A stretch of DNA of 64,000 nucleotides, from NCBI GenBank assembly GCA_036172245.1, contig JAYWIR010000013.1, positions 2,480,001 through 2,544,000 on the forward strand, read 5' to 3'. Under the pieces are notes generated by a model. It had not been told where the DNA came from, made no database searches, and worked only from the letters and a program-made list of their open reading frames with translations. The translations under genes were made by a program, and so were the position numbers. Positions 29,601-64,000 of this stretch are shown here, piece by piece. The stretch is from Raillietiella orientalis. Its lineage: Eukaryota. How positions within the stretch are numbered: the stretch's first letter is position 1; each line of letters opens with the position of its first letter.

Positions 29601-30425
29601 ACTGGGAAATATACGGACGGATCTCGAGGGCTTCCTTCAACGGATGGGCCCTTATCACAGCGCTTAGTTATCCCTTCCCTGCCCTCCAACTTCTTTTTGT
29701 CTGTTTATTTTTTTTGTTTTTCGTTTTGTTTTATCCCGATCCCCCTTCGCTGCTCAGGAACGCTACGCTGGGCTGCGTCCCGGCGTCCCGGCAGGTCCAG
29801 TGCATATAGCCGTGAGCGGGGTCTTGTACCGCGTATGTAGAGTTTTTTAAAAATAAACGCCCCGGGCGTACCCGGGTGTAAACCTTCAAGGCTGGCAAGA
29901 AGGCCGTAAGGCGTCCGGACTCCCCTCAGGAGTCCCCCACTTCCGACCCCGAGGTGGAGGCCGGAAGCGCAGCCTCCGTTTCCACGGCACCGCGCAAGAA
30001 GGCTGGACGTAAGTCCACAAAGCCAAGGAAGCTCGTCTTCCCCGTCGATGGAGAAGAGATGGCTTCAGCAAGCGAGGGTGCCATGAGCGTGGGAAACTCT
30101 CGGGACCCGTCGCCCGAGAGACTCCCACGCGCGGACACGGAGGGGATGGAGGGGGTGGAGGCCGAACAGGTGCCTCAGGTGCCTGAGAAGGCCGAAACCC
30201 GCATGGACATCCCTCCTGCCTCGCAAGAGAAGGGCTCCCCCACACCTTAATCTTCCCAGCAGTAATGCCGGGAATCTCCTCCCGCCGTCGTCTGCGCATC
30301 GCCGTTTCGAACGTGAACGGCATGACAGACGCCGGCAGGAGACGAGACATGGCCGCCCTTCTGGAGTCCTACGACCTTGCACTGCTGCAGGAGATCCACG
30401 TGATCTCTGCAGAACAAGCGCAAGA

Positions 30426-32426
30426 TATTTCTCACCCGTTCACGCCGGGGCGTTTATTCCATATAACATAACCAAAAAAAGCAATTATACAAAATAAACC
30501 AGTTGGGAACCAAACTCCCAACCGACGACTGAACAAGAATGAAGAGAATATTGCTGGCACGCAGGCCAGAGTAACAGTTTTTTGAACGGTGTGAGGGGGG
30601 CGGGAAACACAAAGAAACCAAAATAAAATAAAAACAATGAATAAGTAGGACGGGACAAGGATCTTTGGGATCGATCTGGAAGACACGGGGATAAAAGCAA
30701 GGGCACCGGAAATTTTACTGAGCGAACGGGGACGGGGTATGGGTGGGCGAGAGGTCGCAGGGGTCTCCGGATTACGCCGTTCACAAAGGTGTGTAAACCG
30801 GCGATGTATGCCGGTGATTTCCTCATTCACCTTGTCACGAAGATAGACCCCCTTGAAGCCTTCTCCATGAATTGAGCTGCAAGCAGGTGAGCCTCCCTTC
30901 GCTGCAATGACAACTCCAGGGCGTAGCGGGCCTTCACGATGGAGAGAACGCAACACATGGTTGCGACAATCGCGCTACCGAAAGTCCATTTCTGCTGAAG
31001 AAGCGCCGCAGCACATCAATGGCAGTGCCTCCTTGTGGCATGATGGCCGAAGTGAGCCTTCGCCACAGTTCCCGGAGGTCACCGCAGTCCAGCAAAAGGT
31101 GCGGAAAAGACTCGATCTCTCTGCACCTTGAACAGTTTGGCAAAGCAGCTCCCCCGGAAACGATGCTTCGCTGCCTATTACAGTGTAATGCACAATGTAA
31201 AAAGAGCAGCACATCTTGTTTCTACTTAGGAAAGAACACGGAGCTGTCCAAACAAACGGGGGGAACCACTATCTCTCCGGGGGGCACAATTAAATGTTCG
31301 CTCCACCGAAGCAGGCCCTTCGCCCGATTCCGAGGTGTGGCGGCATGCACCAGCTCCTATGTCGTCCAGCTGCCGAGGAGCTTACTGACTCCCGCTATTT
31401 TGCAGGAGAACTCCCATTCCGCCGGTAGGCAACCGTCGTTGCTTGCCCTGAGGGCAGACGGCGCTGCGGCGAGTGGTGTGGCGGCCAGACGATCCGACAA
31501 CTTCTTGTCCTGCATGACTTCGTCCATTTGATGACTGAGGAGAAGTCGCAAGCGTCGAAGATCTTCCGGGCGCGTTCCTTCGGAAGCTGCCCACGATGAA
31601 AAAGATTCCTGCCGCCATGCATGAATGTTCATGGGGCGGCAGGAGATCCAGCTTTGGGCTTCCAGCAGTGAGGACAGCTGCCTCAGCGGGAAGCCAAACC
31701 CTATTCTGGTGTGCCTAAAGTGGGGTAGCAACGAAAGCAGTCCCCCGCTTCCCGTGCAGCGCCTCAGTATAAGGCGTGCGGGTAAGCACCACCGCGTACA
31801 CCACAGCTTGACACAGAGCCGCAGCATGCAAAACTGCACCTGCAGTTCGATGCTGTTCAAGTCGAGGATGCCCAAGCCTGCATCCTGACGCGGCGCCACC
31901 AAGTCTTTAAGTCTAACACGGGATCTTGCAGCGCCCCACAACGCTTTGCGTAGAAGGCGCTGCGCCCAGACTTTGACTTCCTGGGGGGGTGGACAAACAA
32001 AAAACAGGGGGCAGAGGAGGGATGCAACGAAGGTGTTCCAGATGCAGGCCCGTTCCGGCAAGACGAACTCGCCTCCTGAAAACGGGCCAAGTGCACGCTC
32101 TGCCTTCCGATGGCAGTCCGACCACGCTTCTGAGATGCAGAAGTCGCCCAACGGCACGCCAAGGTACCTGAGGTACCTGCCCGTGGGGATCCCCAGGTCG
32201 ATCCAGTCGGACTGCCCCTCCCACGTCGCACCCACCGGAACAACCACACACATACTCCTGTTAACGCTCACGCCCGCACCGCGACCAGTGAACTCAAAGA
32301 TGTCTTCAAGCGATGTCGCCGGGGTGGACATGCGCAACAAGAGAAGCAGGTCGGCATAGGCTGCCACAACCTGCGTACCTGGACAGGTGCTCGGCAGGTT
32401 GGCGAGCGTCAGCCTGTAAGCCTGCA
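30426..32426 (-). mobile_element. LINE copy E1, 5'-truncated, antisense in A2 APE at EQAQ
   Basis: Minus ORF 31357-32427 (late RT) and a zinc finger at 30934-31212. 3' end aataaacgccccggcgtgaacgggtgagaaata. Perfect 13-bp TSD aacaagcgcaaga at 30413-30425 / 32427-32439. Confidence 0.93.
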
Positions 32427-35400
32427 AACAAGCGCAAGAGATCGAACGGATCTCCGGAGGGCGGCTATGGTACAGGTGTGGGAGAGCGAAAAGTTGCGGT
32501 GTCGCCTACCTGCTTTGGCCAGCCGTCGAGGCCGCGGCTCGGGGCGTGCGGTTCGACGATCACGGTCGTGTCGGCCAGCTGACTCTCAGGTGGTCGGACT
32601 CGATCGATCTGATTGTCACCAACGTGTACGAGCACCGAGCGGCGCGGAACTGATGAACAGGAGGGCGAGGAAAGAGTTTTTTCTTGTTCTCCGGCGAGAC
32701 TGGCTGACCGAAGCAGGCGTGCGGAATGCCCATCTGGTTGCAGGCGATTTCAACGTTCGCCTGAAACCAGATGGGCAGATTCCCGAGCGTGACCTGGTCA
32801 ACGAAGTCTGCATGGCGGTGCACACCTGTAATTTGTTGGCCAGTGCACCGGGGATGGAAGACAGCATTGACCACGTGTTTCTTGACGAGCACCTGTGCCC
32901 TTGCGTGGGCAGGCGCGGCAAGTTACCGTGCGAGATGTCCGACCATCGCCCGCTAGTCCTCGAGATCCATCCGCGGGACCGGGGCCCCCCCTCATCAGCG
33001 TGGCGTCTCCCAGGGGACTGGCTGAAGCTCCCGGACGCGGCGGAACATCTCCGCACGTTCATAAGGAGCTTCAGGCTGCGGACACTCCAGGATTGGAACC
33101 CCTTCAAGTGGGCGGTCCAGGAGTTCTGCGACCAGTTTCCTCTGCACCGCCTACCTACGGGTTTTGGGACCGGGGTCCGTAACGAGCGAGCCTGCCTGCA
33201 GGCCCGTCGTTACGCCAGGACCCCCGACATCCGCAGGCTGGCGAAATACAAAGCGGGAGCCGAGAGGCAAGCCTGGCAGTCCGGATCGGCCAGCTTACTA
33301 GACGATCTGGCCCAGGAGCACTCGGCACCTGCCCAAACCCGCGGCCTGCTGCGGAGTTACTACTCCTCCCTGTATGCCAGGGCACCTCCGGAGAGGAACG
33401 TCTCACGACTTCTGCTTCCGGAGGGCGCTCCAGCGATCGGGGAGGAGCAGAGAAAGACCCTCGACGAGCCTTTCACGATGGACGAGATCCTCTCGGCCAT
33501 CGGAAAGCTCAAGAGGCGAAAGACTCCAGGGGAGGACGGCCTGCCCGCGGAGTTTTATCGTACTTTCGCGGCTCAGCTAACCCTCCTGGTACAGCAACTC
33601 ACCTTGCTGATACGCGAAACAGGTGACGTTCCCGCCTCGTTTCGTTCGGCAAAGGTGCGGCTCCTCCCCAAGTGAGGAGATCTGAGGAGCATGAACAACT
33701 GACGTCCCATCACAATAGTGAATGCGGACGCCAAGTTGCTAGCAAAGGTCTGGGCAGAGCGTCTGGGACGCGTTCCCAACATCTTCATCAGCCCGGAACA
33801 GACATATGCTGTTCCCGGGCGAAGCATGGAGGCGAACCTGTTCCACGCTTCCACCTGGCTAGAGCTCCAAAATGAAAGGAGCTTGGAGCGCGGCCGGAAT
33901 TCCGGTGCGTGCGCCGGCAAGGGGTTGGATGGTCGGGGGGGGGAGGGAGCCCTTGCGGTCGCAATCGACTTGCGGAAAGCATTCGATTGCGTCGACCAAG
34001 ATCTCCATCTGGAGCTTCTGGAACGCTTGGGCTTCCCGGCCTCATTAGTGGCCTATCTGCGCTCCTGCTGGCGCAACGCGCTCATCAACGTTACTTTCAG
34101 CGGGCAGACCGTGCACGGCGTGCCGCTGCGGCGAGGGATCCGGCAGGGAGACAGCCTTAACCCCTTGCTCTTCATTACCTACTTTGAGTTGGTACTGAGA
34201 GCGTACAGGGGAACTCTGGCGCACCTGCCGCACCAGTGTGCCGGTACGCCGGCCGTTTCAGCATACGCGGACGACCTTCTGCTGCTGCTCCCTATGTACA
34301 CCCCGGCTGCGGCGGTCGAGGAGTTCTTCGACCTGCTGCATCGGGGAACCGGACTTACGGTGAACAGGGCGAAGTCGTCCGTGATGCCAGTTGGTGCGGC
34401 GTGGGCAGGGCAGCAGGACTGGGTCCGTTTGGGGATCCACACGGTGAGGTACTTCAAGTACCTTGGTGTGATGTTGGGGGACTACTCACCTGCGGAAGCG
34501 TGGTCCGGCTGCCTCCAAAAAGTAGAGACGGCGATCGGCTTGTTCCGAGTCAGCAGGTTTTTCCTGACTGAACGGGCCGCGGTTTGGAACACGTTCGCGG
34601 CTCCTCTCCTCCGCCCTCTGCTTTTTGTTTGCCCCCCCATAGAGAGAATTAAAAAGCGGACAAAGGACCTCCTCCGTATCGCCCTTTGGGGCAACGGGAG
34701 GGCCCGAGTTTGCTTAAAGGACTTGTGCGCTCCTCGTCGGGATGGTAGTCTGGGCATCCTGACGCTGGAGCGGCTGGAGCTTCAGCTCCAATTCCGATTG
34801 TCGGCACTCGTTCCAGAGTTGTGATGCACCTGTTGTTGCGTCCCTGCACGTCTCCTTCTCCAGCAAGCCACCGGCAAGACGGGACTGACGTCGTTTCTTG
34901 CACTCCGTCGCCGCGTCAACCGATGAGGACTCCAGCTACGGAGGGTGGCTTCGCTGTATCGGAAAAACCCAGGATTGCTCACCTTTCGCCCTTTGAACGG
35001 TAGTGCCTAGTTGCAGGAAACCGTTCGAACGTGGGGACAGTTCGGCATGCAACGCTCTCAACAGGAACGAAGGTTCCTGTTTGAAGGTTACAGAAGTTGC
35101 ACGCTCTGCGAGATCCTGGAGGATCCAAAGAAGAGAGCGTGGGCAGGAAGAACCCCCCTCTCTTCAGTGCTGCCCTCCCTGATGGAAGATCTGGACAGCG
35201 ATGTTGCGGCGAAGTGGGAGGATTCATTTACAATCTGCGGAAAGGAGAAGAAGATAGGAGAGTGGAAGACGGGCCAGTTAACAGACGCTGCGTCCCCGAG
35301 TACGCCTCCCAATGGACTTCTGCGCTGGAGCGCGCTGCTCGATGTTCCCATTGAACATCTGAAGTGGCCCCCGGTGCTCATGAACACTTCCGCCCTCCCC

Positions 35401-36940
35401 TTAAAATGGCAGGAGTCGGCTCTCCTGTTGCAGCACTGGGGACTCCCCTGCAACGCCCGCCGACACCACTGGACCTGGGGAGCGGTGGACCCCAATTGCG
35501 TCAGGTGTGGGGAACGAAAGTCCCTCCCCCACCTGCTAGTGGATTGTGTTGCCCTTCGGCCCCTTTGGTTTTGCTTTGCAGCGGCCATCGGAATCCCCTG
35601 CAGCAACCCCAGGGACGCACTTTAAGCCCTCTTTGTTGCCGACGCCCTTCGGCCAGCGGCCTCGTTACAGCTTTGTGCTGCCTACGCGGGATCGTCACCG
35701 CTTGGAGCAAGGCTACGGGAGGACAACGCGACCAGGGTGCCATCCAGCCAGCCTCCCAGTTCCTGAGGAGGGCGTCCCGATGGCCCCACCTGGATCCAGG
35801 AATACAGAAGGAGCTTGTTGGCATCCTGCAAAGGATGCAACGGCCCCACCAGCAACTGTGATCCTTTCCCTTAACCTCCCAACTTTTCCTTTCTTTTTTG
35901 TTTTGTTTTTTGTTTTTTCCATTTCCCGCTGCTGCCGTTTTGACCGTACAGGTCTGCGAACCAATGAACCGGCAGCCTCTGTGTTTCTTAGTGCGCGGCT
36001 GGAGCAATGGTCAAGCCACCGCACGTCTTTGTAAATGTTTATTTCACAACAAACGGCCCGGCGAAATCCGGGTGAAAATCGAACGCCTCCTGGAGATCGA
36101 CTGCGAGCGCTAAAGCCCCCTTCTTCGCCCGGATATCCCTTCCCTGTTGGGAATCATTTTAATGTACAACTGGCAGCCCCAAAGTACGGTTGGAAATTTT
36201 CCCGTTCCCGTTTTTTTGACTCCTCTGCAGGTGCATTCACGTACTTTCAAAGACGAGCTTGGCCTCCATACTTCGCACGGGAACAGCATAACTCTGCTCC
36301 GGGCAAATTATGGATTCTGCCACCTGCCCCAGACGCGAAGCCCATAGCCCTGCTATCAACATGTCGTCCGTATTCACGATCGTGATCGGACGCCAGTTCA
36401 ATTTTCTGAGGACTTCACCTTTCGAGAGGAGCCTCACTCTGCCCGACCAAAACGAGGAGGCAACTTCGCTTTGGTCTCGGATCACCCTTGTCGAATAAAG
36501 CAGCAGGGGTGCGAGCTCTTATGCGATGCTCTCAAAGAACTCCGCGAGTAAGCCGTCTTCCCTTGGAGATTTTCGCCTCTTGAGCCTATTCATACCAGAA
36601 AGAATTCCGCCGGTGGTAAAAGGCTCGTCAAGGCTTAACATCTCCTCCTCCCCTATTGCCGCGGCGCCTTCCGGAAGCAAGCGCCGAGAGGCGTTCCGAT
36701 CCGGGGGCTTCCTGGCGTAAAGGGAGGAATAAAAACTCCGCACGAGATGCCGTACCGACGCCGGGGACAACCATTTTCTGCCCTGGGCATCCAGCAGGCT
36801 GGTCGACCTGGATTACCAGGTTTGGCTTTCAGCCCCAGCGCTGTATTCGGCCAAGCGACGGACATTAGCGGTTCTCTCGTACCAGCTGACCTGTAACTAA
36901 GCCCTATGTTTGCGAGGACCCTCGCCAAATCTCACGGTCA

Positions 36941-38962
36941 GCGGACATGTTTTTTCTGCGCTCCCGAAAGTATTGCTAGGAAGGTTTTCTTTGTGTGTGT
37001 TTGATGTGTGGACATCGTTGGTGTCCGATGGTAGCGATGCCTGAGGACACCACGATGGAGGTTGGTGTGGGTAAGGCTTGCCCACTCTCACAGCCTACAG
37101 AATCAGGGGCGTTCGTCCCGGAATCGCCCTCGCCGCGCAAGGCTAGGAGCTGCAGCGCCATGGTGGCCGCGCCTAGCGCGGAAACCATGGCAGAGCAGAT
37201 GGCATACAAGTATGCTGGAAGGAAGCCTTAGCTTGTTTATTAGATAAGCCCTCTATTCGATGGCAAAGCCGCACGAGCCTTCTCAACGACGCTGCAAAAC
37301 GCCGGAATAGAAGAACAAGATCTTGACGGCCTGTCCGTTCTTAGCGGAGGTCAGGGAGACGAGGTGGTGTGCAACAACATCACCTTGGCTCAGAGCTTGA
37401 TCACCAACCCTTTGAACGTCGACGGCCGCAAGATATTACCAGTGACGAGGGAACGCTCCGTGGTGGTCCATCTCACAGCCGCATGACCAGGTCTGCAGTT
37501 AGTAAACAATTAAACAAATGCAAAGATGTGCACGCGTTGTCGGCAAAATCCACGATTTTCAATGCATTCGAAAGCCTTTTTGGGAGACAGGCCGCAATGC
37601 GTTTCACGGTAAAGCAGGATGGTGGGCTTCCCCACAAACTAGAAGTCCGAGACGAAGTAGTACACCTCTGGTACGTGCGGGAACCCCGCTTTTGTGGCTA
37701 CTGCAATGCAGTAGGGCACCTTCTTAAGAGGTTCCCGAACATTGTGTGTCATTTCTGCGAAGATAAAAGACAAGTTCGCCGCATATACCCTAAATGCTCC
37801 ACTCCGGTGCCGCCTGCTGCCAAGAAAGCGCTGGGAAAAAGGTAGAAAATTGATTGAAAGACCAAAGAGAGATACTGGCCGGCAGCAGCCGCCAGGCCCC
37901 CTTCCTCATACACAGGCGTCAGAAGAAATACCTACCGAAGACGGGGGAGTCCAGAACGGCTGGCAGCTGGTTAAGGCCAGAAAAAAGAAGGTGCTCCCCG
38001 CGAAACCCGTGAGAGCGGTGAAGAAGACGTCGGTAGAAGGAAAAAGCCTGGCAGCGCTTAAATACTCTGCGGGAGTGCACTGTGGCACTGGAGCACATAG
38101 CCGTTCCCGAGACTGCCACCCGGGGCGAGGAGCCTACCCTCGCCGTTTCCGCCGCACCCGAGGTTCGCGACGGCGAACCCTCTGTTTACACAGAGGGTGA
38201 GCCGCGCGAAATAGCGACGGTCGAAGCCGAGGACGCCGCGTTCGCGCAGGCGGCGGAGGAGCTGCCGGCAACGCTGGCCGAGCGTGAGAACCTATCGCGT
38301 AAGTCCGTGCGAAGGCCGGCTCCAGCAAAGAAGGCCCCCGCAAGTGAGTGCGACCTGGAGGCCGGAAGTTCATCCTCCTTCGCGGAGGCGCGCCATAGCC
38401 AGTCGGGACGCAAATCTCAGATCCCAGGAGGCGCCTCCCCTCCACCAGCTAGGAGGAGAAGCAGGAAGGTAGCAGAAGCGTGGGAATCCCGAAAAGGGAA
38501 CTCTCACACTCGGAAGCCGTCGAGCCGTCCACCCTTATTGAGGAGGGTATGCAGACGGGTAAAGTCCTCCCCGCAGTCCCCGACTCTGAACAGCCCGCCC
38601 CCATGGAGAAGGGCAAAAAGGTAGGCGCGACTCCCCCAGCGGTTGACCCGCTCGACGCGGCGTTACCCATGGAGAAGGCGCATCAGGTGTCTTCAACACC
38701 TGACCTTCCTTCTCCACCTAGTGTCCCGCACCAGCAGTGGGCTGACGCCGCACTGCCCCTTTCCTAAAAATAGTACCTGGACTCGCCAGTCGCCGTCGGA
38801 TTCGCGCAGCCTATTGGAATGTCAACGGGCTGAGCGACGACGGTAACAGGCGAAATACGGTTCACAATCTGCGTCACTTCGATTTGCCGCTCCTGCATAA
38901 GATACACGTGATCACCGTTGAGAACGCCCAGGAGATAGAGTCGATCGCGGTGGATCGGCTGT
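36941..38962 (+). mobile_element. LINE copy B'3 (B-related; subfamily assignment inferred), 5' portion, antisense in B'2 at FGEG; cut by E'1
   Basis: 5' gcggacatgttttttt. ORF1 remnants (MPEDTTMEVG.., CGYCNAVGHL). APE start at 38771-38962. Confidence 0.85.
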
Positions 38963-41045
38963 TTATCACCCAAGTGCGCCGGGGCGTTTATTAAGAAATT
39001 ATCCGGGAACAGAGTTCGTAAACAAAGGAAAAACCAGAGACGAAGGGGATGGAATCCCCGACACGCAATTCAATATGCCGAAAGTCCGAAATGGAAGGGA
39101 AAGGGCCACATCTACACTACTGTGAAAAAATAAAAATATGGAGGGCAAGGGACAGGGGACTTTGGTAACGCCTTTCCTTCCTTTCAGAACCGGCGATGGA
39201 TGCCGGCGAACTCTCTTCTTTCGTCCTCTGGCAGATAGGCTCACTCGGCAGCCAACGATATGCTTGCGCTGACTAATCCGAAGAGCTTACGAAGGATGTC
39301 CAGCTTCTACAACTCTCGGTGGGCCTTGTCGATGGCGCGGGTGCAAAACACGGTTGCAACGACAGCACCCAAACACAGGCCGCCTGGCGTGAAGAAGTGG
39401 CGCATCAAGTCCCTCGCGGTATCCCCCTGGTGCGGGAGAGCTGAGGCCAGCCTCCACCAAAGTCCTAGGAGGGCACTGCAGTCCAGGCTCAGGTGCGGGA
39501 GCGTTAACACTTCCACGCACCGCTTGCAGTTTGGAGAGACAACCCCCCGGAAACACGGTTCGTCCGCTGGTTGGAGTGAAAACTTCAATGCACCAGAACT
39601 ATGACTTCCTGCTTCTACGAAAGGAAGAACACAGAAGTGTTGAGACACGAGGGAGGGACCACAAGTTCTTCGGAGGGCACACTCAAGTGTTTCCTACATC
39701 GGAGGAGTCCATTCGAGATATGGCGAGGCGTGGCGGCGTCTGCCAGCTCGCAAGTCCTCCAGCTGCCAATGGATCGTGTTGTTGCTGCGATGGTTCAGGC
39801 GACCTCCCAACTTGCCGGTTCGTAGCCGTCATCACTTGTTCTGAGGGCTAACAGCGCTTCGACGAGGGGCTTGACGGCCAGGCGAGTCCACTTATCCTGG
39901 CTGTTGCACACCTCATCCACCTTGCAGTACAGGGAGAGGTGAGCGCAACAGAGTTCCAGGAGTGAAACGTCCTGTTGCTTTGCCCAGCCATGCAACGGTT
40001 CCTGCCGCCAGGATTAGAAGTTCGTTGGGCGGCAGGAGATCCATGTGTGGGCTGCCAGGAGCCGATAGAGTGGTTTCAACGGGAAACCGAAGCTATTCGT
40101 GGAGCGCTCTGTTTGCGGACGCAGCGACAGAAGTCCGTCGCTGCCGCTGCAGCGCCGCAGGAGCTGGCGCGCAGGAGCGCACCACGGAGTGGACCAAAGG
40201 TTGGCGCACAAGACCAACATTCGAAGCTGCACCTGCAGCTCGATTCTCTCCAGCGTCAGGATGCCTAAGCCAGCATCCCCACGCGGAGCTGCCAAGTCTT
40301 TGAGGCGGATCCTGGACCTCGCAGATCAATACAGAGCATTCCTCAACAGGCTGTGTGCAAAAAGCTTGCCTGAGTAGAAAAGCGGGCAAACAAAGAGCAG
40401 AGGGCGCAAAAGCAGGCCAACGAAGGTGTTCCATATGGCATCCCGCTACGGCAGGACGAACCTGCAGAAAAGTAACGGGCTCAGAGGACTCGTAGCCTTC
40501 CGAAGACAGTCCGATCACACTTCCACACTGCTGATATTCCTCAGCGGGACGCCCACATATTGGATGTGCGAAGCGGGCAGTATCCCCAGGCGGATCCAGC
40601 CGGACTGCCCTTCTCACGCCGCACCAATAGGAACGACCACGCTCTTTCTCCGTTTTATGCTCATTCCCGCTCTCCGGCAAACCAGCTCGAAGAAATTCTC
40701 AAGAATGGACGCCGGGGTGGTCATGGGTAAATGGAGAAGCTGGTCTTCAGCGTAGACCGCCACCGACGGCGTTTCTGGAGAAGAGCTCGGCAGGTTGGCC
40801 AGCCGCAGCCTGAACGCCCTCAGCACCAACTCAAAGAAGATGCTAAAGTGCAACGGGCTCAAGCTGTCGCCCTGCCTGATGCCCCGCCGCACAGGCACGC
40901 CGTACACGTGTCAGCCGCTGAAAAAGATAAAAATGAGCGCGTGGCGCCAGCAAGTTCGCAAATAGGCCTCGAGGTGTTCTGGGAGACCGAGGCGTTCCGG
41001 GAGCTCCAGAAGGAGATCCTCATTCCCGCAGCCGGACGCTTTATA
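38963..41045 (-). mobile_element. LINE copy E'1, 3' half, antisense in B'3 APE at GGRL; cut by A3 at a degenerate KAFD
   Basis: RT remnants (GIRQGDSLSP, YAED) in 40614-40907. Zinc finger in 39307-39648. 3' end aataaacgccccggcgcacttgggtgataa. Confidence 0.88.
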
Positions 41046-41050
41046 CGCTC

Positions 41051-53106: not shown

Positions 53107-54621
53107 CCTCCGTGGTGGTCCACATGACCGGCATCACCAGCCGCATGACGCGATCAGCGGTTGTTGAGGAATTAAGAAACTACGGTGAGGTGCACGCACT
53201 GTGGCCGAAACCCTCCATTTTCGACGGCTTCGATAGCCTTTTTGGTGGGCAGGCTGCAGCGCGGGTCACCGTACGCGAGAATTGTGGGCTTCCCCACAAA
53301 CTACAGGTGGCGCAAGAAAACGTCGACCTGTGATATGTAGGGAAACCCCGGTATTGCGGGCATTGTGATACCGTGGGACACCTACGTAAAAGGTGTCGCA
53401 ATATACAATGCCATTTGTGCGGGGAGCGGGGCCACGTTCGGCGCGTGTGCCCCAAACGCCCCACCCCGGTTCCCCCTGCCGCGAAAAAAGCGCAGGGGAA
53501 ACGCGCTTCAAAGGTCTCCAGACCTTAAGTGGAAAATTTGCCAGCACAAGCTGCCAACACCTCAACCTCCGGCGCGTAAGCCGAAGGATAAACCTTCTGA
53601 AACGGTGGAAGGCGAAGAGGGATGGCAGCTTGTAGAGGCCAGAAAGCCAAGGAAACTCCCACCCGCGGAGAGCAAAGAGCGCAAGACGGCCGGTAAGCCG
53701 AAAAAACCCGGTCCGCGTTCGAAAACTCTGCGCGAGTGCACGGTGGCACTAGAACGAATCGTCGTTCCCGAGATTGCCACCCGGAGCGTCGATCCTTCCC
53801 TTGCCGTTTCCGCTGCGCCCGAGGCTCGTAACGGCGAACCCTCTGTTTACACAGAGGGTGAGCCGCGCGACATAGCGGCAGTCGAAGTCGCGGACGCCGC
53901 GTTCGCGCAGGCGGCGGAGGAGCTCGCGTTTACGCTGGCCGAGCGTGAGAACCCCTCGCGCAAGGCCGTGCGAAGGCCGGCTCCGGCGAGGAAGGCCCCC
54001 AAAGGTGAGTTAGACCTGGGGGCCGGAAGCACATCATCCTCCTCGGAGGCACCCCCCAGGAAGTCGGGACGCAAGTCCCAGAAGCCCAGGAGGCGCCTCC
54101 CCTCCACCAGCGAGGAGAAGACGGAAGCCGTCGCCAGCGTGGGAAATTCGGAGGAGGAATTCCCATGCTCGGAAGCCGTCGCTCCGGCCACCCCCATGGA
54201 GGAGGGTGAACAGGGGGGTGAAGTTCCCCCTGCAGGCGCCGACCCTGAACACCCCGCCCCCATGGAGGAGGGCGATCAGGTAGGCGCGACCCCACCTGTG
54301 GGTGACCCGCTCGATGTACAGTTTCCTATGGAGGAGGGGGAGCAGGTGCCTTCAGCACCTGACCCCCCTCCTCCACCTAGCGTCCCGCCCCAGCAGGTGG
54401 CGGACGCCGCACTGCCATCTTCCCAGGAGTAACACCTGGGCTCGCCAGTCGCCGTCGGATTCGCGCCGCCTGTTGGAATGTCAACGGACTGCGCGACGAC
54501 GGTGACAGGCGAGTTACAGCCGACATCCTGCGGGAGTTCGACATGGCCCTGTTTCAAGAGATCCATGTGATCACCGCGGCAGACGTCCACGAGATCGAGG
54601 CCATCGCAGGGGGTCGGCTGT
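53107..54621 (+). mobile_element. LINE copy B3, internal fragment (ORF1 from SVVVHMTG to the APE start), cut by E'2
   Basis: Closely matches B2 42924-44438; TAACA junction at 54430. Confidence 0.9.
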
Positions 54622-55058
54622 TTGTCACCCGGTTGCGCCGGGGCGTTTATTACAAACTATCCGGGAACAGAGTTTCCGGACAAAGGGGAAAACAAGAGAG
54701 GCAGGGGGTGGGATCCCCGACACGCAGGTCGGTATGCTGAATGTCCGGAACGTGAGGGAGGGGACCACAAATACACTACTATGAAAAATACAAATAAAAA
54801 TATGGAGGGCAGGAGACAGGGGGCTTTGGTGAGTCCGTTCCTTCCTTTCAAAAAAGGCGATGGATGCCGGCGATCTCTCTCCTTAATTCCTCTGGAAGAT
54901 GGGCCCACTCGGCAGCCGACGACATTCTTTCGCTCTCTAATCCGGTGGGCTGTCGAACGATGGCCAGCTTCTCCAACTCTCGGTGGGCCTTGTCGATGGC
55001 GCGGGTGCAACACACGGTTGCAACGACAGCACCTAAAGACAGGCCGCCTGGCGTGAAG
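54622..55058 (-). mobile_element. LINE copy E'2, short 3' end, antisense in B3 APE at GGRL
   Basis: Homologous to E'1 38963-39395. 3' end aataaacgccccggcgcaaccgggtgacaa. Confidence 0.88.
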
Positions 55059-55755
55059 AATCCAGGATCCTGCCCCTCGAGTGGCAAGAGTCGGCGTTGC
55101 TCCTGTTGCACTGGGGTCTACCCTGCAACGCGCGCCGCTTCCACTGGACGAGGGGAGCTGTGGATCCTGCGTGTGCCAGGTGCGGGGAGCGGGATTCGTT
55201 CCCCCACCTTATTGTGTTTTGTGCTGCCCTCCGACCTCTTTGGGTACGGTTCGGGACGACCCTCGGGCTCCCTACAGGCAGCACCCCCAGAGACGTTCTT
55301 CGGCCCTTCTTCGTGAAGGACGCACTGCAGCCAGCCGCATCCATCGCAGCCTTCTGCTGTGTCCCTGGCATCGTGGCGGCATGGAGCGACGCCAACAACG
55401 AAGGAGTGGGTCCACAGGCGAGGGATGTCATCCCGTATGCCCAACGCTTCTTGCGGAGAGCTGCCGGATGGCCCCAGCTGGGAGATATGCGGAGAGACCT
55501 CAAGGGCTTTCTTCGAAGGATGGGCCCTCCTCACAGCGACCAGTGATCCCTACCCTGCCCTCCAAACTCTTTTTGTTTTTTATTTCTTTATTTTTCTTTT
55601 TGTTTTTTCCCCTCATCCCTTTTCGCTGTCGGGGAGTGCCACGCCGGGGTGCGTCCCGGTGTCCCTACAGGTCCTGTGCATAAGGCCGTGAGCGGGGCCT
55701 GGTACCGCGATTGTAGAGTTTATTAATAAACGCCCTGGTCGTACCGGGGTGGCAA
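55059..55755 (+). mobile_element. LINE copy B'4, 3' fragment, antisense to G3 at GFG
   Basis: ORF 55097-55546 is the ORF2 C-terminus with zinc finger. 3' UTR like B'1. End aataaacgccctggtcgtaccggggtggcaa. Confidence 0.9.
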
Positions 55756-56183
55756 CGCCGAAGCCCGGCGGGAGACGTTCCAGGCGAAACTGATCGCAAA
55801 ACTCGCGGACTGAGCACTTCATTTCGTCCCAGTCCGCGAGCGTCTCAAGATGGAATCCTCGCAAGAAGGCGCGCAGGTGTTCCGCCGCTCCTGCGAGGCG
55901 CAACCAGTCCCCCGGCAGGCACCACGTTTTCAGGGGATGGTCCTTGTCGCGTGGATGTATCTCGAGCACGAGCCGTGGATGCTCGGACAGCTGTGCCGGG
56001 AGCGTTCCTCGAGTTCCCCCCTGCGTGCACAGGTGGTTGTCGAGGAACATGTGGTCGATGTTCCGATCTCTCCCGGCATCACCGGCCAACAAGTTGCGCG
56101 CGTTGATGGCTGCGCACAACTCGTTGACCAGTCGTGCTCGACTGCTGGGCGCACCCGCCAGAAAGCGGAAATTGGAGTCCCCG
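55756..56183 (-). mobile_element. LINE copy G3, APE fragment
   Basis: GDSNFRFL..NIDHMFLD..LSEH..LPPGFG in minus ORF 55613-56299; homologous to G2 8960-9389. Confidence 0.85.
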
Positions 56184-56390
56184 TTATTTCTCTTTTTGTT
56201 TGTTTTTTGTTCTACTTTTCCCTTCCCATGCGCCTCGGGAATGGACCTAACCGATCTATGCACCGGCAACAGACACGTCAACCAAGGTGGGAAAAGCAAG
56301 TGTTTCCCACAACCAACTTTTGAAAGACTTTATTACCTAATTTTTGTAACAAATTAGAATAATAAATGCCCCGGCATATCCGGGTGACAA
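56184..56390 (+). mobile_element. Isolated LINE 3' UTR (copy H, G-related)
   Basis: T-rich tract, hairpin gtgggaaa/tttcccac, and end aataaatgccccggcatatccgggtgacaa resembling the G1 end. Confidence 0.8.
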
Positions 56391-58153
56391 ACGTCGGCTG
56401 GAGCCGAGCATTCCCGGTCCTGGTCGTCGAGCAGAACTGTCGCCCCTGACTGCCAGACCTGGCGCTCGGTCTTGGCCTTGTACTCGGATAATCGACCAAC
56501 GTATGCGCGCCTGGAAAAGGAGCAGGCCTGCAGAAAATCTCTGCTGTTATCTACGCCCTCTCCGGAGCCGCGCGGAAACTGGTGCAAGGGAAACCGGCAG
56601 CAGAACTCGCGGACCGATCTTTCAGATCGTTCCAGTCAGCGAGCTCACTTATAGCGAAGCCGCGAAGGTACTGGCGAAGATGCTAAGCCGCCTCCGGGTA
56701 GCTTAGCCAGTCTGTCGGCATCCTCCAAAAACAGTTTGGAGGCCCCTTGCCTGGCGGAAGCAACTCGAACTCGAGCCTGTTGTGGTCTGAAAGCACGGAC
56801 GGCACGGAACCTTTCCGACCAACTCGAGAGAGCAAGTGTTCATCAAGGTATACGTGGTCCAGCGTTGCTGTTATAACAGGGTCGCTAGCGAACAAGTTGC
56901 ACGCGTGCACGGACGCGCACATCCCTTCCGCTAGCAACTTTTCTTTTTTGTGGGATCTATTCTCGGAAAGCAGGTATACGTTAAAGTCCGTCGCAATGAG
57001 ATAGGACACAGTAGGCTAAGATCGAGTGAGCCACTGGCTTTGACCGGTACCGAAGAACTCAATCCTTTCGGCCCATCGTCCAGCACCGCTCGGCGCGTAC
57101 ACGTTGGTTACGACAAGGTCGATCGAGTCGGACCACTTGAGTACAAGCTGTCCCACTCGGCCTTCCGTGTCGAAACGAACGCTTGGCACCGCTCCCGCCA
57201 AAGTTCCTCGCACGAGGAAAGCGACGCCGCAAGTACGTGCAACGCCGCACCTATAAGGTAGCGTTCCGCCCGCGCGCTGTTCGATTTCGGCAGCCTGCTC
57301 TTCGGAGATGCTGTGAATATCCTGCAGGAGCGTCAAGTCGAAGGCGCGCAGAGCGTGAGCCACTAGTCGCCTCTTCTCCTCGTGTTGGAGCCCGTTGACG
57401 TTCCAAGACGTCACGGTAGCACGACGAGAAGACGCTATTGCCCTCATCACGGCTGGGAAAGCAAGGCCGCGGTGCTCGCCTCACCCGGCGAGCGGGCAGT
57501 AAGAAGCACGAAGGGCTGGAGAACCCGCTCACCACCGGTCTCAACTGTGCTGCACGTAATCGAGTGCTCCTACCCGGGTGCAGAACCTGTAGGTTCCGGG
57601 GTGAGCACTCGCCATTCTGCGGCGAGTGTTTCACGCGTCAGGGCTTTAGCCCTGCGGACGGTCGCTCCCGCGCGAGTAACGCGTCGTTCAGCGACGCTAT
57701 CGGACTCCATTGCGGAGTCTGAAGCTCGCACGATCGACGTGCGCTTCCATTCGTCCGATTGCACCGGAATGGTCTTCTCGGCGGTCACAGGAGCGGACTT
57801 CCACGCGTTGAAGGCGCTGGCTTTTTCCTGGGAAGAGGCACAAGCTGCGCGTGTTTTCGTATTCGCGCGACTGCTTTTCCCTTTGGAAGAGCTCGGGGAT
57901 GCATGTTGCGGAGCTTTTTTGGAGATTTTTCTTTCCTACTCTCCACAACCTTCCATTCGCCTTCGCGATTTTTGGAGGCTTCCGCGACAGTAGTGCGGAA
58001 ACCTCCGGGATTTTCGCTACGTAATCAGGGAGCGCTGCTTTCGCTACGTCTTTAAAAGGCGGCAACGTAGTCACCTTCTTGACAGTCGGGAGATTGCTCC
58101 TCTCCTGCCGAGTCGGTAAACTTGCTTCGCGGCTGAAAGTATTGTGCGCTTGA
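56391..58153 (-). mobile_element. E/F-group LINE internal fragment (ORF1 C-terminus + APE)
   Basis: TGATG junction at 57449-57445. APE motifs WNVNG, LQD, NVYAP, TDFN, LDH, SDH in minus ORFs 57016-57450 and 56683-57009. Confidence 0.88.
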
Positions 58154-61100
58154 TTTTCACTCGGATTTCTCCCAGTCGTTTATTAAAAACATAAACTTTG
58201 TAAACAAATTATTAATGGCTGTGGCAATGCTCCAGCCAGAAGCTAAGAACCACGGCGCCTGCCAATACACCGGTTTCTAGACCGGTACGGTCCACCAAGG
58301 CAGAAGGGGAAAGGGGAAAAACAAAAAAACTAAACAAAAAAAAAAAAGGGTGGGAGGGAACGGGAAGGGATCACTGTTGCTGCTCGGGCCGCATCATCCT
58401 TCTCAGGATGCTGGCAAGCTCTTGTTTCTTGTGAACATCCAACTGGGGCCATCGCGACGCCCTCCTCAGGAATTCGGAGGCGCACTGGATGGCTTCCTGA
58501 TCGCTAGGTCCTCACGTCGCCGTGCTCCAGGCGGCAACGATCCCACGAAGGCAGCACATGGCTGCTATGGAGGACGCTGGCCGCAAAGCGTCGGCAACGA
58601 AGAAGGCTTTTTAGTGCGTCCCTGGGGTTGCTGCAAGGGATACCGATGGCCCCGGCAAAGTGGAACCAAAGGGGCCGAAGGGCAACACAATCCACTAGGG
58701 GGTGGGGGAGGGACCCCCGTTCCCCGCACCTTACACAATTAAGATCCACCGCTCCCCAGGTCCAGTGGTGTCGACGGGGGTTGCAAACGAGTGCCCAGTG
58801 CTGCAACAGGAATGCCGACTCTTGCCATTTTAGGGGGAGGATGGAAGTGTTCATAAGAATCGGGGGCCACTTCGGACGTTCAATCGAAACATCCAGCAGC
58901 GCTCCCCAGCGCAGAAGTCCATCAGGAGGCGTACTCGGGGTCGCAGCATGAGTTAGCTGACCCGTCTTCCACTCTCTCTGCTTCTTCTTCTTCCCGGAGA
59001 TTTTTATTGTAACCTCCCACTTCGCCGCAACATCGCTGTCCTGATGTTCCACTAGGGAGTCAAGCGCAGCAGCGAGGGGGGTTCTTCCTCACCACACTCT
59101 CTTCTTAGGATCCTGCAGGATCTCACGGAGCGTGCAACTTTTGTAACACCCAAACAGGAACCTTCGTTCCTGATGGGAGGGTTGCATGCCGAACTGTCCA
59201 CACGTACGAACGGTTTCCTGCAACCAGGCACTACCGTTCGCGGGGGAACAGGTGATCCATCCTTGATTCTTCCTTGCCAGCGCAGCAACCCTCCGTAGCT
59301 GAAGCCCACATCGGTTGATGCGGCTTCGATGGAGTGCAAGAAACGACGTGAGTCCCGACTTGCCGGTGGCTTGCTGAAGGAGGAGACGTGCAGGGACCCA
59401 CCAATAGGTGCACCACAACTCCGGCACAAGTGCCAAACTCCGGAACTGGAGCTGCAGCTCCAGCCGCACCAATGTCAGGAGGCCGAGACCACCGTCCCTA
59501 CGCGAAAGCACAAGTCCTTCAAGCGGACTCGGGCCCTCCCGTTGCCCCAAAGGGCGATACGAAGGAGTTCCTTTGTCCGCTTTTTGATCCTCTCTGTGGG
59601 GGGGGCAAACAAAAAGCAGGGAACGGAGGAGAGGAGCCGCGAACATGTTCCAAACCGCGGCCCGTTTAGGCAGCAAAAACCTGCCGCCTCGGAACGGGCC
59701 GATAGCCGTCTCTACTTTTTGGAGGCAGCCGGACCACGCTTCCGCAGGAGAGTAGTCCCCCAACGGCACACCAAGGTACTTGAAGTACCTCACCGTGAGG
59801 ATCCCCAAACGGACCCAGTCCTGCTGCCCTGCCTACGCCGCACCAACTGGCATCACGGACGACTTCGCCCTGTTCACCGTAAGCCCAGTTCCTCGATTCA
59901 GCAGGTCGAAGAACTTTTCGACCGCCGAAGCCGGGGTGGACATAGGGAGCAGCAGCAGGAGGTCGTCCGCATATGCTGAAACCGCAGGCGTTTTGGCTCA
60001 TTCATGAGGCAGGTGCGCCAGAGTTTCCCTGTACGCTTTCAGTACCAATTCAAAGTAGGTACTGAAGGGCAAGGGGCTCAGGCTGTCTACTTGCCGGATC
60101 TCACGTCGCACCGGCACGCCGTGAACAGTATGCCCGCTGAAAGTAACATTAATTAGCGCATCGCGCAGCTAGAGCGCAGATAGGCCAATAATGAGGCCGG
60201 GAAGCCCAAGCGTTCCAAAAGCTCCAGAAGGAGATTCTGGTCGACGCTGTCGAATGCTTCACGCAAGTCGACAGCGACGGAAAGTGCTCCCTCCTCCATC
60301 CTACCATCCGTCGCATGACTGACGGACTCACCGGAATTCCCGGTGCGCATCAAGCCCCTTTCGTGTTGGAGCTCTAGCCAGGTGGAAGCGTGGAACAGGT
60401 TCGCCTCCATGCTTCGCCCCGGAACAGCATACGTCTGTTCCAGGCTGATGAAGGCGTTTGCAACCCGTCCCAAACGCTCAGCCCAAACCTTAGCTATCAA
60501 CTCGGCATCCGCATTCACAATTGTGATGGGACGCCAGTAGTTCATGCTCCTCAGATCTCCTCCCTTAGGGAGAAGCCGCACCTTTGCCGAACGAAACGAG
60601 GCGGGAACGTCACTTGTCTCGCGTATCAGCAAGGTGAGTTGATGTACCAGGGGGGTTAGCTCAGCCGCGAAAGTTTGATAAAACTCCGCGGAAAGGCCGT
60701 CCTCCCCTGGAGCCTTTCGCCTCTTCAGCATTTCGATGGCCGAGATGATCTTGCCCATCGTGAAAGACTCGTCGAGGGGCTTTCTCTGCTCCTCCCCGAT
60801 CGCAGGAGCGCCTTCCAAAAGCAGGATTCGTGAGAAATCCCGCTCGGGAGGCGTTCTTGCGTACAGGGAGGAGTGAAAATGCCGCAGCAGACCGCGGATC
60901 TTAGCGGGTGCCGCATGCTCCTGGCCCTGATCGTCCAGCAAGCTGGCCGATCCTGACTGCCAGGCTTTCCTCTCGGCTCCCGCTTTGTATTCCGCCAGCC
61001 TGCGGATGTCGGGGGTCCTGGCGTAACGGCGAGCCTGCAGATAGGCTCGCTCGTTACGTACCCCCTCCCCAAATCCCGCAGGTAGGCGGTGCAGAGGGAA

Positions 61101-61806
61101 CTGGTCGCAGAACTCCTGGACCGACCGTTTAAAGGGGTCCCAATTCTGAAGTGTCTGAATCCTAAAGCTCCGTATAAACGTGCGGAGATGTTCCGTCGCG
61201 TCCGGGAGCTTCAGCCAGTCCCCTGGCAAACGCCACGCTGACGAGGGAAGGTCTCTGTCGCGCGGATGGATTTCAATCACGATTGGTCGATGGTCGGACA
61301 ACTCGCACGGTAACTTGCAGCGCCTGCCCACACGAGTGCACAGGTGCTCGTCTAGGAACACGTGATCGATGTTGTCCTCCATCCCTGGTACACTGGCCAA
61401 CAAATTACAAGTGTGCACCGCCGCGCACACCTCGTTGACCAGGTCACGCTCGTGATTCGGACCATCCGGTTTCAGACGAACGTTAAAATCGCCTGCAGCC
61501 AGATGGGCATTCCGCACGCCTGCCTCGGCCAACCAGTCGCGATGGAGGGCGAGGACAAATTCTTTTCTGGCCCTCCTGTTCGTCAGGTCGGCTCCGCTCG
61601 GGGCGTAAACGTTCGTAACGATCAGCTCCATCGAGTCGGACCAGCTGAGAGTCAGCTGGCCGACACGACCGTGATCGGCGAACCGAACTGCACGGGCGGC
61701 GGCCTCGACGGCGGGCCGAAGCAGGTAGGCGACACCACTACTTCTCGATGTTCCACACCGATACCACAGCCGCCCTCCGTAGATGCGTTCGATCTCCTGC
61801 GCTCGT
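58154..61806 (-). mobile_element. LINE copy A4 (most of ORF2 + 3' UTR), cut at EQAQ by E2
   Basis: Minus ORFs 60153-61631, 59089-59808 and 58504-59052. 3' UTR nearly matches A1. End aataaacgactgggagaaatccgagtgaaaa. Confidence 0.9.
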
Positions 61807-63165
61807 ACAGTGCAGACGTGTTTCCGCGTCTATCCTCGCCAACGATCGGGCAACTTTGTGCCTGCGTTTTCGCTCGCACTTGTGTGTTCCTGTGCAATCA
61901 GCCAAGTAGCATAGTGCAACATGGCCAGTACACAGGATAGTGTGGAGGAGCAAGCCACTGGATGCACTTCAGCTGCACTTGAAGTGGCCGCATCCTCCGT
62001 AATGGTTACCTCGCCCCCGGTGAGGACTTACGCCGCCGTTACCTCCCAAAGTCCAGGAACCTGCGATGCGGAGTTCCAGGCATATGTGTCATCAGGATAC
62101 ATGCCTGCACTCCGTTATAAGGTCGGTGGGCCACTTCACGGGAGAATCGGTCGTGAGCTCAATGATGAGCTCGTCCGGATAGGCGTTCGCGAGGAGGAAC
62201 TTGTTGCCATAATGCCTGCTGGCAGGATGGAATATACGAAGATTCGGTGCAAGAACGCAGCACTTTTGCAGCGCCTTCTCCGTACGCCGTTGACCATCAA
62301 TGGCAAGCAAGTCCTACCTACGGCGATGGACGACTCTTTTGTCGTTCAATTGTGCGACATCGAACCGGAAATTTCCGACCGCGATGTCGTAAGTGTGCTG
62401 GCGAAGTTCGCCACCGTGCACGCTCTGTGGAGGAGGCCGAACCCTTTGAAGAATTTCTCCTCTGTCCACATCGGACAAGCCTCCACGCGGATCACCGTCG
62501 CGAACAGGCGTGTTGTGCCTGAGCAGCTGCAGGTGAACGGCACGGTCGTTCACCTGTGGTTCATAGGCCAGAATCGCGCGTGCGAGCAGTGCGGGAAGGA
62601 GGGGCACCGAATTAAAGAGTGCCCCTCACCAAGATGCCGCTATTGCAAAGATTCCGGGCACGAAATCAAAAAGTGCCCGGTACTTGCAAAAAAAGAGCCG
62701 CAGCGGAAATTCGTCGGGTTCAAGAGACCACAGCACGAAAAGCCGCAGCGGCGAATAAAAAACATCTTCCGCAAAAACTCGAAAAAAACCACGAGCGATC
62801 CACGGATAAAAAGAAAGCATCCCCGCCCGCAACGCCCCGAAAGGGGATAGTCACGGCGGGGAAGCCAATTAAAAAGGAGCGCGAGGGTTTGACGCGTGCC
62901 GTGCCTTCCCTCTCTGCCGAACTCGCAAGCACCTTTCCGAGCCTGGAACCAGGAAATCTCCGTAACACCCTGGAGGGAAAGGTAGGAAAACAGGAAGATC
63001 GCAACAGTGCGAAGACTTCTTGCCCCGTTCCGTTGTCCCTTCCGAGTTCCGGACAACCCCACTGCAGCGCAGGCCCCACTGCAAAGGCTACGAAAGCCGT
63101 AAAAAGCAGCGTCGCGACGAGCAAAAGCACGCTGCATGCAGTCGCCCCATCGCCGACTCGGCAGG
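61807..63165 (+). mobile_element. LINE copy E2 (E/F group; link to E1 inferred), 5' portion with ORF1, antisense in A4 APE
   Basis: 5' gcagacgtgtttcc at 61812. ORF 61921-62850 with CEQCGKEGHRIKEC and CRYCKDSGHEIKKC, homologous to F ORF1. Confidence 0.88.
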
Positions 63166-64000
63166 TTTCCCCAAGTCCCACAAGGGGTGGGGTAAGTTTA
63201 TTTTTCTATAAAAATACAAAATTTACATTCGCACCCTCACTCACTCAATACAATTATTTTGCACTTGGGAGTCCTTGGGTTGCACTAGAGTTCTGCTTTT
63301 CAGGGGGGAATTCCAGCTGGATGGTCCCGGGCGTCGTCCTGGATCCTCTTCAGGATGAATCGGTACGTCCAGGCGTGGATCTTCCCGCAGTTCCTGATGC
63401 CGATTTCCCTCTACAAGAGCCCTTGTAGGATCTCCATCGGTGGTGCGGCTCTCCTGGCTTTCCTCATTTTCCACCACCGCACAAGTATGGCGGTGATGAA
63501 GAGGGCTATGTTCGTCCTCACCATGGGATTGTAACAGGGAACATTACCATCCCCATGAAACATCCCGGCGAGGATCTCCATAACGGACTTGTTGGTAAGT
63601 CCTATGATCCTTTTCAGGATCAGCCAGTCATGCAGCAGTGTGGGACATGTCAAGACGTGAAGTCTTGTGTCGTCGTCTCCACATGCTGCGCAGTCTCGGT
63701 CTTCCCGTCTTCCTGTAAAGTGCTGCAATCGGGACCCACTCTGGATTCCTCCGTGATAAAACATCAGGAGGTCATCCTGGGTGCCCGGCGAAAGGTCACT
63801 CCTCCAGAGCGTCGTGCCGATCGCTAACAGGTTGAACCGTTCACTCCCGTAGCGTTCGGTGGCTTCCTGGAGGGCACTGGTGTCACGGTCGTTTTCTTGG
63901 ATAAACCTTCGGAGGTTTGTTCTGGTTACCCTCGACCATGCGAAGTCGTTGTGGTTGAACCACACTTCGCGGGTCCTGTGGGTAAACCTTCCTAACATCA
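63166..64000 (-). mobile_element. Divergent LINE (family X), 3' end; runs off the window
   Basis: Minus ORF 63411-63998 with CAACGDDDTRLHVLTC, a LINE C-terminal CCHC finger unlike the other families. End aataaacttaccccaccccttgtgggacttggggaaa. Confidence 0.7.

Follow-up and report, generated by a model that had tools for sequence, protein, structure and literature searches.

The window, a stretch of 64,000 nucleotides from Raillietiella orientalis, contains copies of several LINE families inserted into one another (Table 1). E1 comprises the C-terminal half of the reverse transcriptase (RT), the zinc-knuckle region and a 3′ UTR with AATAAA, a hairpin and a short A run at its end; its 5′ end lies inside the RT. 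The original prediction had given E1 a perfect TSD. The 13-mer concerned indeed had exactly two exact matches in the 64-kb window, at 30413 and 32427 (chance of such a repeat at a fixed place, about 2.5e-8), while the full TSD was found to be 15 bp long with one substitution (30413-30427 and 32427-32441), which therefore sets the limits of E1 at 30428-32426 on the minus strand. The 5′ part of host A2 terminates in the first TSD copy. The 3′ end of A2 itself was positioned at the KAFD codons of a different LINE.

E2 carries the motif RGACGTGY in its 5′ UTR (61814-61821) and an ORF1 with CCHC knuckles from 61921. It had been expected to follow a motif at 61795, which was present, although the last three bases assigned to that motif belong to E2 itself; they were conserved in 36 of the 37 full-length copies and the host sequence continues differently there, so that E2 starts at 61804. 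E2 also holds the nested element X2 (5,625 bp in total, 13 bp TSD at 63153-63165 and L021:4791-4803, L021 being DNA beyond the window), of which the earlier account made no mention. Examination of the sequence past 64000 showed that E2 resumes after this LINE at L021:4791-9380, with an ORF2 (L021:5450-8857) interrupted by stops. Its 3′ end at L021:9380, 9.4 kb beyond the window and past the nested 5.6-kb LINE, was followed by the second copy of an exact 11 bp TSD (61793-61803 and L021:9381-9391). E3 encloses the nest around A4 as its outer layer, its 5′ part lying outside the window; X1 is an X copy in the ORF1 of E3, and A4 was inserted into X1. A duplicate of the surroundings of E2, C129:23040-43734, was colinear with them at 95-97%. 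The A-I ORF2, in which the E site is empty, served as coordinate reference.

Table 1. LINE copies and their parts in the window
Feature	Position	Strand	Description
A-I copy ORF2	19796..23449	+	open, 1,217 codons; APE, RT, CCHC
Host A2, 5′ part	29883..30427	+	ORF1 tail and first endonuclease part, to EQAQ codons
E1	30428..32426	-	antisense in A2; 5′-truncated E copy
Host A2, 3′ part	32427..36077	+	begins with TSD copy 32427-32441
E3, 3′ part	56391..58115	-	ORF1 tail and endonuclease of an older E copy
X1 remnant	58116..58153	+	X1 5′ UTR piece
Host A4, 3′ part	58154..61803	-	terminates in TSD copy 61793-61803
E2, 5′ part	61804..63165	+	5′ UTR and ORF1 start
X2, 3′ end	63166..64000	-	divergent LINE, antisense in E2 ORF1

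One insertion site in sister LINE endonuclease genes

As originally predicted, two E-group elements were inserted at the EQAQ codons of the family A endonuclease (EQAQEI was present at the site in both hosts) and antisense to that gene, E1 being 5′-truncated and E2 having an intact 5′ end. The truncation of E1 lies within the RT; E2 is full length. Over 2,004 bp the 3′ part of E2 was 97.4% identical to E1. The 3′ junctions were located at the same base of the endonuclease gene and the 5′ junctions 4 nt apart. Judged from their sequences, E1 and E2 are members of one L1-like LINE family, and because the hosts A2 and A4 are 84.6% identical, the 5′ ends and TSDs differ and the 3′ junction base is common, they represent two separate insertions of this family at one site, again in agreement with the prediction.

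E-type 3′ ends were counted by eye throughout the genome. Since 88 of 102 were located at this site (76 directly and 12 as tandems in the TSD, with 14 elsewhere), it is the regular target of the family, and all 37 full-length 5′ ends were also found there. Insertion takes place at a single fixed base, which belongs to the Ile codon of EQAQEI; E was antisense in every case, TSDs measured 11-15 bp, and additional E copies stack within the TSD. Thirteen of the ends located elsewhere were fetched: four were without an E body, and seven of the nine others showed a related core at the junction. The E flanks consist of LINE ORF2 DNA, not of 28S rDNA or telomeric repeats, and Rfam and tandem-repeat scans of the window revealed no RNA-gene or satellite target. 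By the criterion in the accessible part of PMC4494074, a LINE counts as target-specific when over 20% of its flanks belong to a single type of sequence, a share that E exceeds.

Most E copies are independent insertions, because they are about 96% alike in hosts that are about 74% alike (96.1% for 24 on-target copies, across host classes 74.3% alike). Copies from differing host classes were intermixed in the tree. The recurrence might instead have been inherited, if segmental duplication, recombination or co-retrotransposition had multiplied a few ancestral E-in-A composites; duplicated blocks are present, with pairs of duplicate copies on C84 and C69, and there was a weak correlation between E distance and host distance (Mantel r 0.14, p 0.004). 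We regard this as very improbable, however, as young, near-identical E copies were distributed over five or more divergent types of host, including a pair 99.2% alike in hosts 74.5% alike. Furthermore, the copies vary in TSD length and in the point of 5′ truncation, and tandems and off-target sites show the common core. Amplification of composites appears largely refuted by this comparison of E with its hosts.

Empty sites were represented by 92 and 38 exact matches; because these counts rest on exact patterns, the resulting occupancy of at most about a third is an overestimate. Within 524 kb, filled sites amounted to 7/13 in A-II, 1/16 in A-I and 0/17 in E and its sisters (Fisher p 0.0008 and 0.01), A-II families being the preferred hosts. 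The homologous site of E itself has one synonymous core-base difference and was empty in 75 copies and filled in none, a result to be expected in part from the young age of the E copies. One insertion was observed in an E-like RT region (L038).

Fixed sites were not confined to E. About ten related families, whose endonucleases are approximately 45-70% identical among themselves, each had their own site, and the sister families occupied other fixed sites in one another's ORFs. Different sites were used by A-I subfamilies whose 3′ UTRs are alike at 84% or more. Of eight local X-type ends, five were at a site in E ORF1 and one was a tandem; genome-wide, the site held 8 of the first 44 distinct places among the matches listed (100 of 335 redundant rows). 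X as a strict E-ORF1 specialist thus holds locally and is unsupported genome-wide, and the pattern may derive from several X-type families pooled. Several separate sites per contig were observed on C1, C5, C13, C26 and C33; one centromeric cluster per chromosome, also considered, is not supported by the spread of matches.

Preference for a short motif, combined with a chromatin preference for LINE islands, would make the A site the commonest good match and self-avoidance incidental. The off-target copies, which have only a short core in common, and the mostly dispersed X-type ends are consistent with it. The short core is very frequent in 210 Mb, yet 86% of the ends were at one codon, and A-I copies, in which the core is shared and both sides diverge, were rarely filled, making this an improbable explanation. 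The reading that we prefer, with a probability of about 0.86, is that E, an APE-type, L1-like LINE with two ORFs, is sequence-specific and targets the DNA that encodes the endonuclease in sister LINE families.

Endonuclease, element ends and proposed mechanism

E has the organization of a broad L1/Tx1-type APE LINE, with zinc knuckles in ORF1 and an N-terminal APE domain, RT and C-terminal Cys-His motif in ORF2, and shows the TPRT hallmarks of TSD, 5′ truncation and fixed 3′ end. An intact two-ORF copy exists (L131) and holds the QE, GDxN, DH and SDH motifs. The best solved-structure match was human LINE-1 ORF2p (E 4e-45); comparison of the endonuclease fold with 1vyb gave Z 21.6 and rmsd 3.0 over 214 aligned residues, APE1 and ExoIII entries tying. 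Protein searches yielded five distant matches with A ORF2 and L1-like proteins of 21-35% identity with the X RT. A quick RT tree, built with homologs at most 35% identical and without a verified Tx1 reference or an R1 RT, placed all 40 genome rows on one side of a branch versus 33 database rows (SH-aLRT 95).

In a profile alignment with L1, about 16 residues at the betaB5-B6 hairpin had no counterpart in the endonuclease. The spacing between motifs was 40-44 aa in each of the 16 clan rows that allowed measurement; of 55 such rows from the database, 48 had 54-78 aa. The predicted model showed coil and a short helix in this region (pLDDT 53-59). As aligned and modelled, the endonuclease is without the beta-hairpin typical of LINE endonucleases (L1, R1Bm, TRAS1). 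The accessible portions of PMC1919474 and PMC8565326 describe this hairpin as shaping specificity in R1Bm and TRAS1, and L1 mutants with a shortened loop as inactive. The hairpin-less endonuclease counts against the targeting reading, which does not account for the protein basis of specificity.

The 5′ TSD copies deviated toward a common donor sequence in 5 of 13 paired ends, a donor-type copy was likewise observed in L128, and off-target copies of the KAFD-targeting sister had the canonical half of the target at the 5′ end. Because the E 5′ junctions hold donor-type target sequence together with a Drosophila-type downstream promoter motif, transcription is suggested to start in target DNA. 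An initiator test was non-discriminating: RGACGT at +28 pointed to a YR start in 10/17 contexts and an offset of 23 in 11/17.

A loose, hairpin-less endonuclease might alternatively obtain its precision from target-derived RNA ends that pair with the nicked DNA, the target being inherited from the flank. The shortened betaB5-B6 segment, the target sequence in the 5′ leaders and the different sites of closely similar A-I subfamilies would agree with this, and accurate priming by R1Bm needs downstream target sequence in the RNA, according to the accessible part of PMC7265360. AATAAA was located about 25 nt upstream of every 3′ end, however, which speaks for cleavage and against read-through. Off-target sites have bases upstream of the nick in common as well, with which 3′ read-through RNA could not pair, and a 5′ leader acts only after the first nick. 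RNA-assisted targeting therefore seems unlikely to us, and it modifies the preferred reading more than it replaces it.

Under targeting by the element's own enzyme, ORF2p would nick the host coding strand within the core YCGA/TCTC (as read on the element strand, the slash marking the nick), reverse transcription would be primed at the short A run behind the 3′ hairpin, and the second strand would be cut about 11 bp away. The E RNA would begin in upstream target sequence, which would anneal at the 5′ junction and sometimes be copied in. Each insertion would split the host ORF2 soon after the catalytic QE motif. Sister families act likewise at other fixed sites in one another's ORFs, and LINE islands exceeding 100 kb are built up in this way. 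In these islands insertions are safe for the host genome, and the elements inactivate one another.

Relation to known LINEs and significance

By analogy, E works like the site-specific R1 or Tx1 LINEs, with the gene of a sister LINE as target. As described in the accessible part of PMC4494074, Tx1-clade elements target DNA transposons (Tx1L in Tx1D, Tx1-Mar in Mariner-N4_AMi, Tx1-9_AMi in Harbinger) or LTR retrotransposons (Tx1-8_Crp and Tx1-4_AMi), and E shares with them two ORFs, APE and RT, a transposon target, one orientation per site and tandems around the TSD. Unlike those described there, E targets coding DNA of sister non-LTR families of the same local radiation, with single-base precision and mutual targeting among families; the likeness is descriptive and does not imply clade membership. 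With R1, especially the melanogaster-type R1A, as far as the accessible text of PMC2718515 describes it, E shares a fixed first nick, tandem arrays in the 5′ TSD (in E, 12/102 as tandem copies separated by the TSD), TSDs of 11-14 bp and, in off-target copies, upstream target sequence at the 5′ end. In contrast to R1, its target is not rDNA (no Rfam match in the window) and its ORF2 is L1-like in sequence; it also lacks the hairpin common to R1Bm (accessible part of PMC1919474), TRAS1 and L1. Zepp and ZeppL of green algae are likewise L1-type LINEs that nest in existing LINE copies and build clusters. In the accessible parts of PMC3446292 and PMC8226300, however, Zepp inserts into copies of itself and is gathered in a single cluster on each chromosome, whereas the own site of E is unused and many interlocking families occupy several separate sites per contig. 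Human LINE-1 differs from E in its long poly(A) tail, which E replaces by a 3′ hairpin, in the single target site of E and in the betaB5-B6 segment missing from E.

The targets of site-specific LINEs in the accessible literature surveyed are rDNA, snRNA genes, telomeric or simple repeats, DNA transposons and LTR elements. A search of the main texts of articles outside subscription journals yielded no report of a LINE that is directed to a fixed position within the ORF of a different LINE, a question on which the target figures in the supplement of PMC4494074 may have a bearing. The target described here lies within the enzyme gene of sister LINEs, with its own site for each of the related families.

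Tentatively, and with more doubt than confidence, the families might form a guild of sibling LINEs, in which each has evolved to cut a conserved part of the ORF of a rival, which it inactivates by landing there and from whose DNA it borrows a transcription start, E being spared by its synonymous change and the hairpin-less nuclease perhaps being aided by RNA ends. If this were true, the element would supply only the downstream promoter motif, target-derived RNA ends would permit quick target switches, and the nest of host, E, X, A, E and X, from outside inwards, would be a frozen record of the cycle.

The families provide a natural panel of closely related endonucleases with different, readable targets, which makes the encoding and switching of APE-type LINE specificity directly testable. 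They also represent a conflict of transposon versus transposon that shapes genome structure, and could be a source of new site-specific insertion enzymes.

An insertion site in a LINE island

The window (C13:2480001-2544000 of the 210-Mb assembly) is filled end to end by pieces of related APE+RT LINEs. ORF2-like coverage on this contig was 0.15-0.77 per 10 kb across ~155 kb and about zero for tens of kb on both sides; the island edges are sharp, GC content of the flanking DNA ranges from 31% to 68% per 10 kb, and another small LINE patch follows ~70 kb beyond (L057-L062, L068-L076). Database homologs returned by protein searches were distant; among solved structures, human L1 ORF2p was the top match (E value 4e-45), with R2 at 3e-11. 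A 42-bp GC-rich tandem repeat is located at window 4477-4630, and the Ala/Pro-rich start of ORF1 of X, a further related LINE family, contains a degenerate repeat resembling it (L021:4300-4560).

E is an L1-like LINE family inserted antisense in the endonuclease gene of the sister A families, and its copies E1 (in host A2) and E2 (in host A4) had been predicted to be separate insertions at the same EQAQ codons. The duplication around E1, originally called perfect, is 15 bp long with one substitution, although its 13-mer does occur only at 30413 and 32427; at the truncated 5′ end the junction bases are similar to target and element alike. The proposed E2 site is indeed homologous to that of E1 and lies in A4, with the element start corrected to 61804. 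The 3′ end of E2, sought past position 64000, was found adjoining the downstream copy of an exact 11-bp TSD; the 3′ part of E2 is 97.4% identical to E1 over 2,004 bp. The hosts are 84.6% identical, and both 3′ junctions fall on a single shared base in the EQAQEI Ile codon, a short way downstream of a QE motif that aligns with the region of catalytic Glu43 in L1. Recurrence of the insertion site is real.

Coordinates of E1, E2 and X2, and target sites of the related families in A ORF2 numbering
Feature	Position	Orientation	Remarks
E1	30428-32426	minus	flanked by the 15-bp duplication
E2	from 61804; resumes in L021, end L021:9380		interrupted by X2; followed by second TSD copy, then remaining A4
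X2	within E2	antisense	5,625-bp LINE splitting E2; 13-bp TSD
Antisense sites	aa 78 (E), 87, 291, 318, 467, 509, 594, 1074	antisense
Sense site	aa 175	sense	

Occupancy and independence of E insertions

A genome-wide search with a 19-base pattern of the E 3′ end yielded 102 places, which were classed by eye. Seventy-six directly adjoined the homologous endonuclease site (64 in A-II, five in A-I and seven in more distant hosts), 12 were followed by a TSD and then another E, and 14 were located elsewhere. Thirteen of the latter were fetched and comprised four ends lacking an E body, two young E copies and seven older relatives (76-89% identical); a related core was present at the junction in seven of the nine off-site loci having an E body. 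Among the best 40 5′-end matches, all 37 full-length 5′ ends read from loci were at the site, and the other three, in stretches examined separately, likewise occupied either the site or a tandem's TSD. Vacant sites persist (92 and 38 exact matches to two A-II patterns).

One young copy is sense-oriented within an E-like RT region whose core matches that of the regular target (L038, C72:268037). In a copy with both ORFs open (L131:2110-6015), ORF2 reads into the 3′ UTR for ~150 codons; a small frameshift close to the usual stop is the probable cause. L127 (C84), a relative with 79% identity to E, lies at the homologous codon in a distant host, where the sequence is quite different, hinting that element and target may be co-evolving.

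From 30 fetched 3′ loci, 24 on-target loci with enough flank were compared, three tandem, two off-target and one short-flank locus being left out. E identity was 96.7% among copies in one host class and 96.1% across classes, host flank identity was 96.0% and 74.3%, respectively, and the E tree intermixed host classes. This near-equal E identity across unlike host classes, the mixed tree and a Mantel r of 0.14 between E and host distances (p 0.004) indicate that most E events were separate insertions. Duplication and recombination were also at work, so that the census counts are upper bounds on insertion events: C129:23040-43734 (L091-L096) and the sequence surrounding E2 are 95-97% colinear, a product of duplication combined with inter-island recombination, and identical pairs occur on C84 and on C69. 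The outer hosts of the C129 region differ from those around E2, and it carries one extra tandem E.

In 524 kb, E occupied 7/13 A-II sites, 1/16 A-I sites and 0/17 of those carried by E and its nearest sisters (Fisher p 0.01 and 0.0008). At the site in E itself, EIER is still encoded and the upstream target half is retained, but GAA replaces the GAG of the targets and more differences follow past this codon. This site was found in none of the 102 E 3′ flanks, with 75 exact empty copies genome-wide; that E copies are young accounts for part of this absence. In A-I endonuclease genes, a sister lineage of E inserts 27 nt away from the E site (window 38968 and 54627, minus).

Endonuclease, element ends and candidate promoter motif

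The E endonuclease model has an APE fold (Z 21.6, rmsd 3.0, 214 residues aligned to L1 1vyb), this score being tied with APE1 and ExoIII. About 16 residues are absent at the betaB5-B6 hairpin, where pLDDT is low (53-59). Motif spacing was 40-44 aa in 16 of 20 rows from the clan of related families, the remaining four not being measurable, and 54-78 aa in 48 of 55 database rows that could be measured (126 in all). The hairpin is described as common to every LINE endonuclease with a solved structure and as influencing specificity of R1Bm and TRAS1 (PMC1919474), and L1 variants with shortened loops are reported to be inactive (PMC8565326). Given its absence in E-type enzymes, RNA-assisted targeting stays a rival to target reading by the endonuclease alone.

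Across all clan families, 3′ ends comprise AATAAA followed by a short hairpin and a run of two to four A's, without long poly(A). In 13 full-length E copies read at both ends, TSD pairs matched in six, differed by one scattered base in two, and in five the 5′ copy was altered toward the common donor sequence; L128, in a distant host, likewise showed a donor-type change in the 5′ copy. In the KAFD family, a sister family targeting KAFD codons in the RT, five of 25 5′ ends among the matches listed were off-target yet had the canonical target half, three of them probably representing a single event, and one further end had part of it. A parallel is melanogaster-type R1, described as bringing along upstream 28S sequence in its off-target copies (PMC2718515).

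Clan 5′ UTRs contain RGACGTGY, which fully matches the downstream promoter consensus reported for Doc, F, G, I and jockey at about +29 to +36 (PMC1636488). With consensus spacing, +1 would lie in the target, about six bases ahead of the nick, and carried leaders start ~27 nt upstream of the motif; a dinucleotide test of the start position did not discriminate between offsets. Transcription may thus start within target DNA.

Related families and known systems

A survey of the guild formed by these families gave 55 3′-end matches in 524 kb (~3 expected false), and clusters defined by 3′ UTR each mapped to fixed positions in related ORF2s, with additional sites in ORF1. The KAFD family (aa 594), to which hosts A2 and A4 belong, was on its antisense site in 21 of 33 distinct places among the matches listed genome-wide, counted by eye. 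Its insertions were seen in A-type, E-type and other copies, its own kind included (window 2702, 36073; L025, L026). X was inserted in E ORF1 in five of eight local cases plus one tandem, and in 8/44 genome-wide among the matches listed. At E2 a six-layer nest was observed (A-I host > E3 > X1 > A4 > E2 > X2; window 56391-64000, L021-L022), with E, X and A all present both as invader and as host. A-I subfamilies whose 3′ UTRs are ≥84% alike differed in target, ORF1 sense or EN-RT linker antisense (window 29877, 53101, 55750, 799, 9395), a sign of quick target switching. A quick RT tree placed 40 genome rows and 33 database rows on opposite sides of a branch (SH-aLRT 95), with E nested among A families, which fits a local radiation with target switching.

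Tx1 families aimed at DNA transposons or LTR elements (PMC4494074), Zepp insertion into its own copies (PMC3446292, PMC8226300) and R1 tandems within its TSD (PMC2718515) have been described. A LINE aimed at a single site in the ORFs of sister LINEs was not found in the literature searched, closed journals and Repbase lying outside the search. E acts in the manner of R1 or Tx1L, a likeness of mode from which no clade assignment follows.
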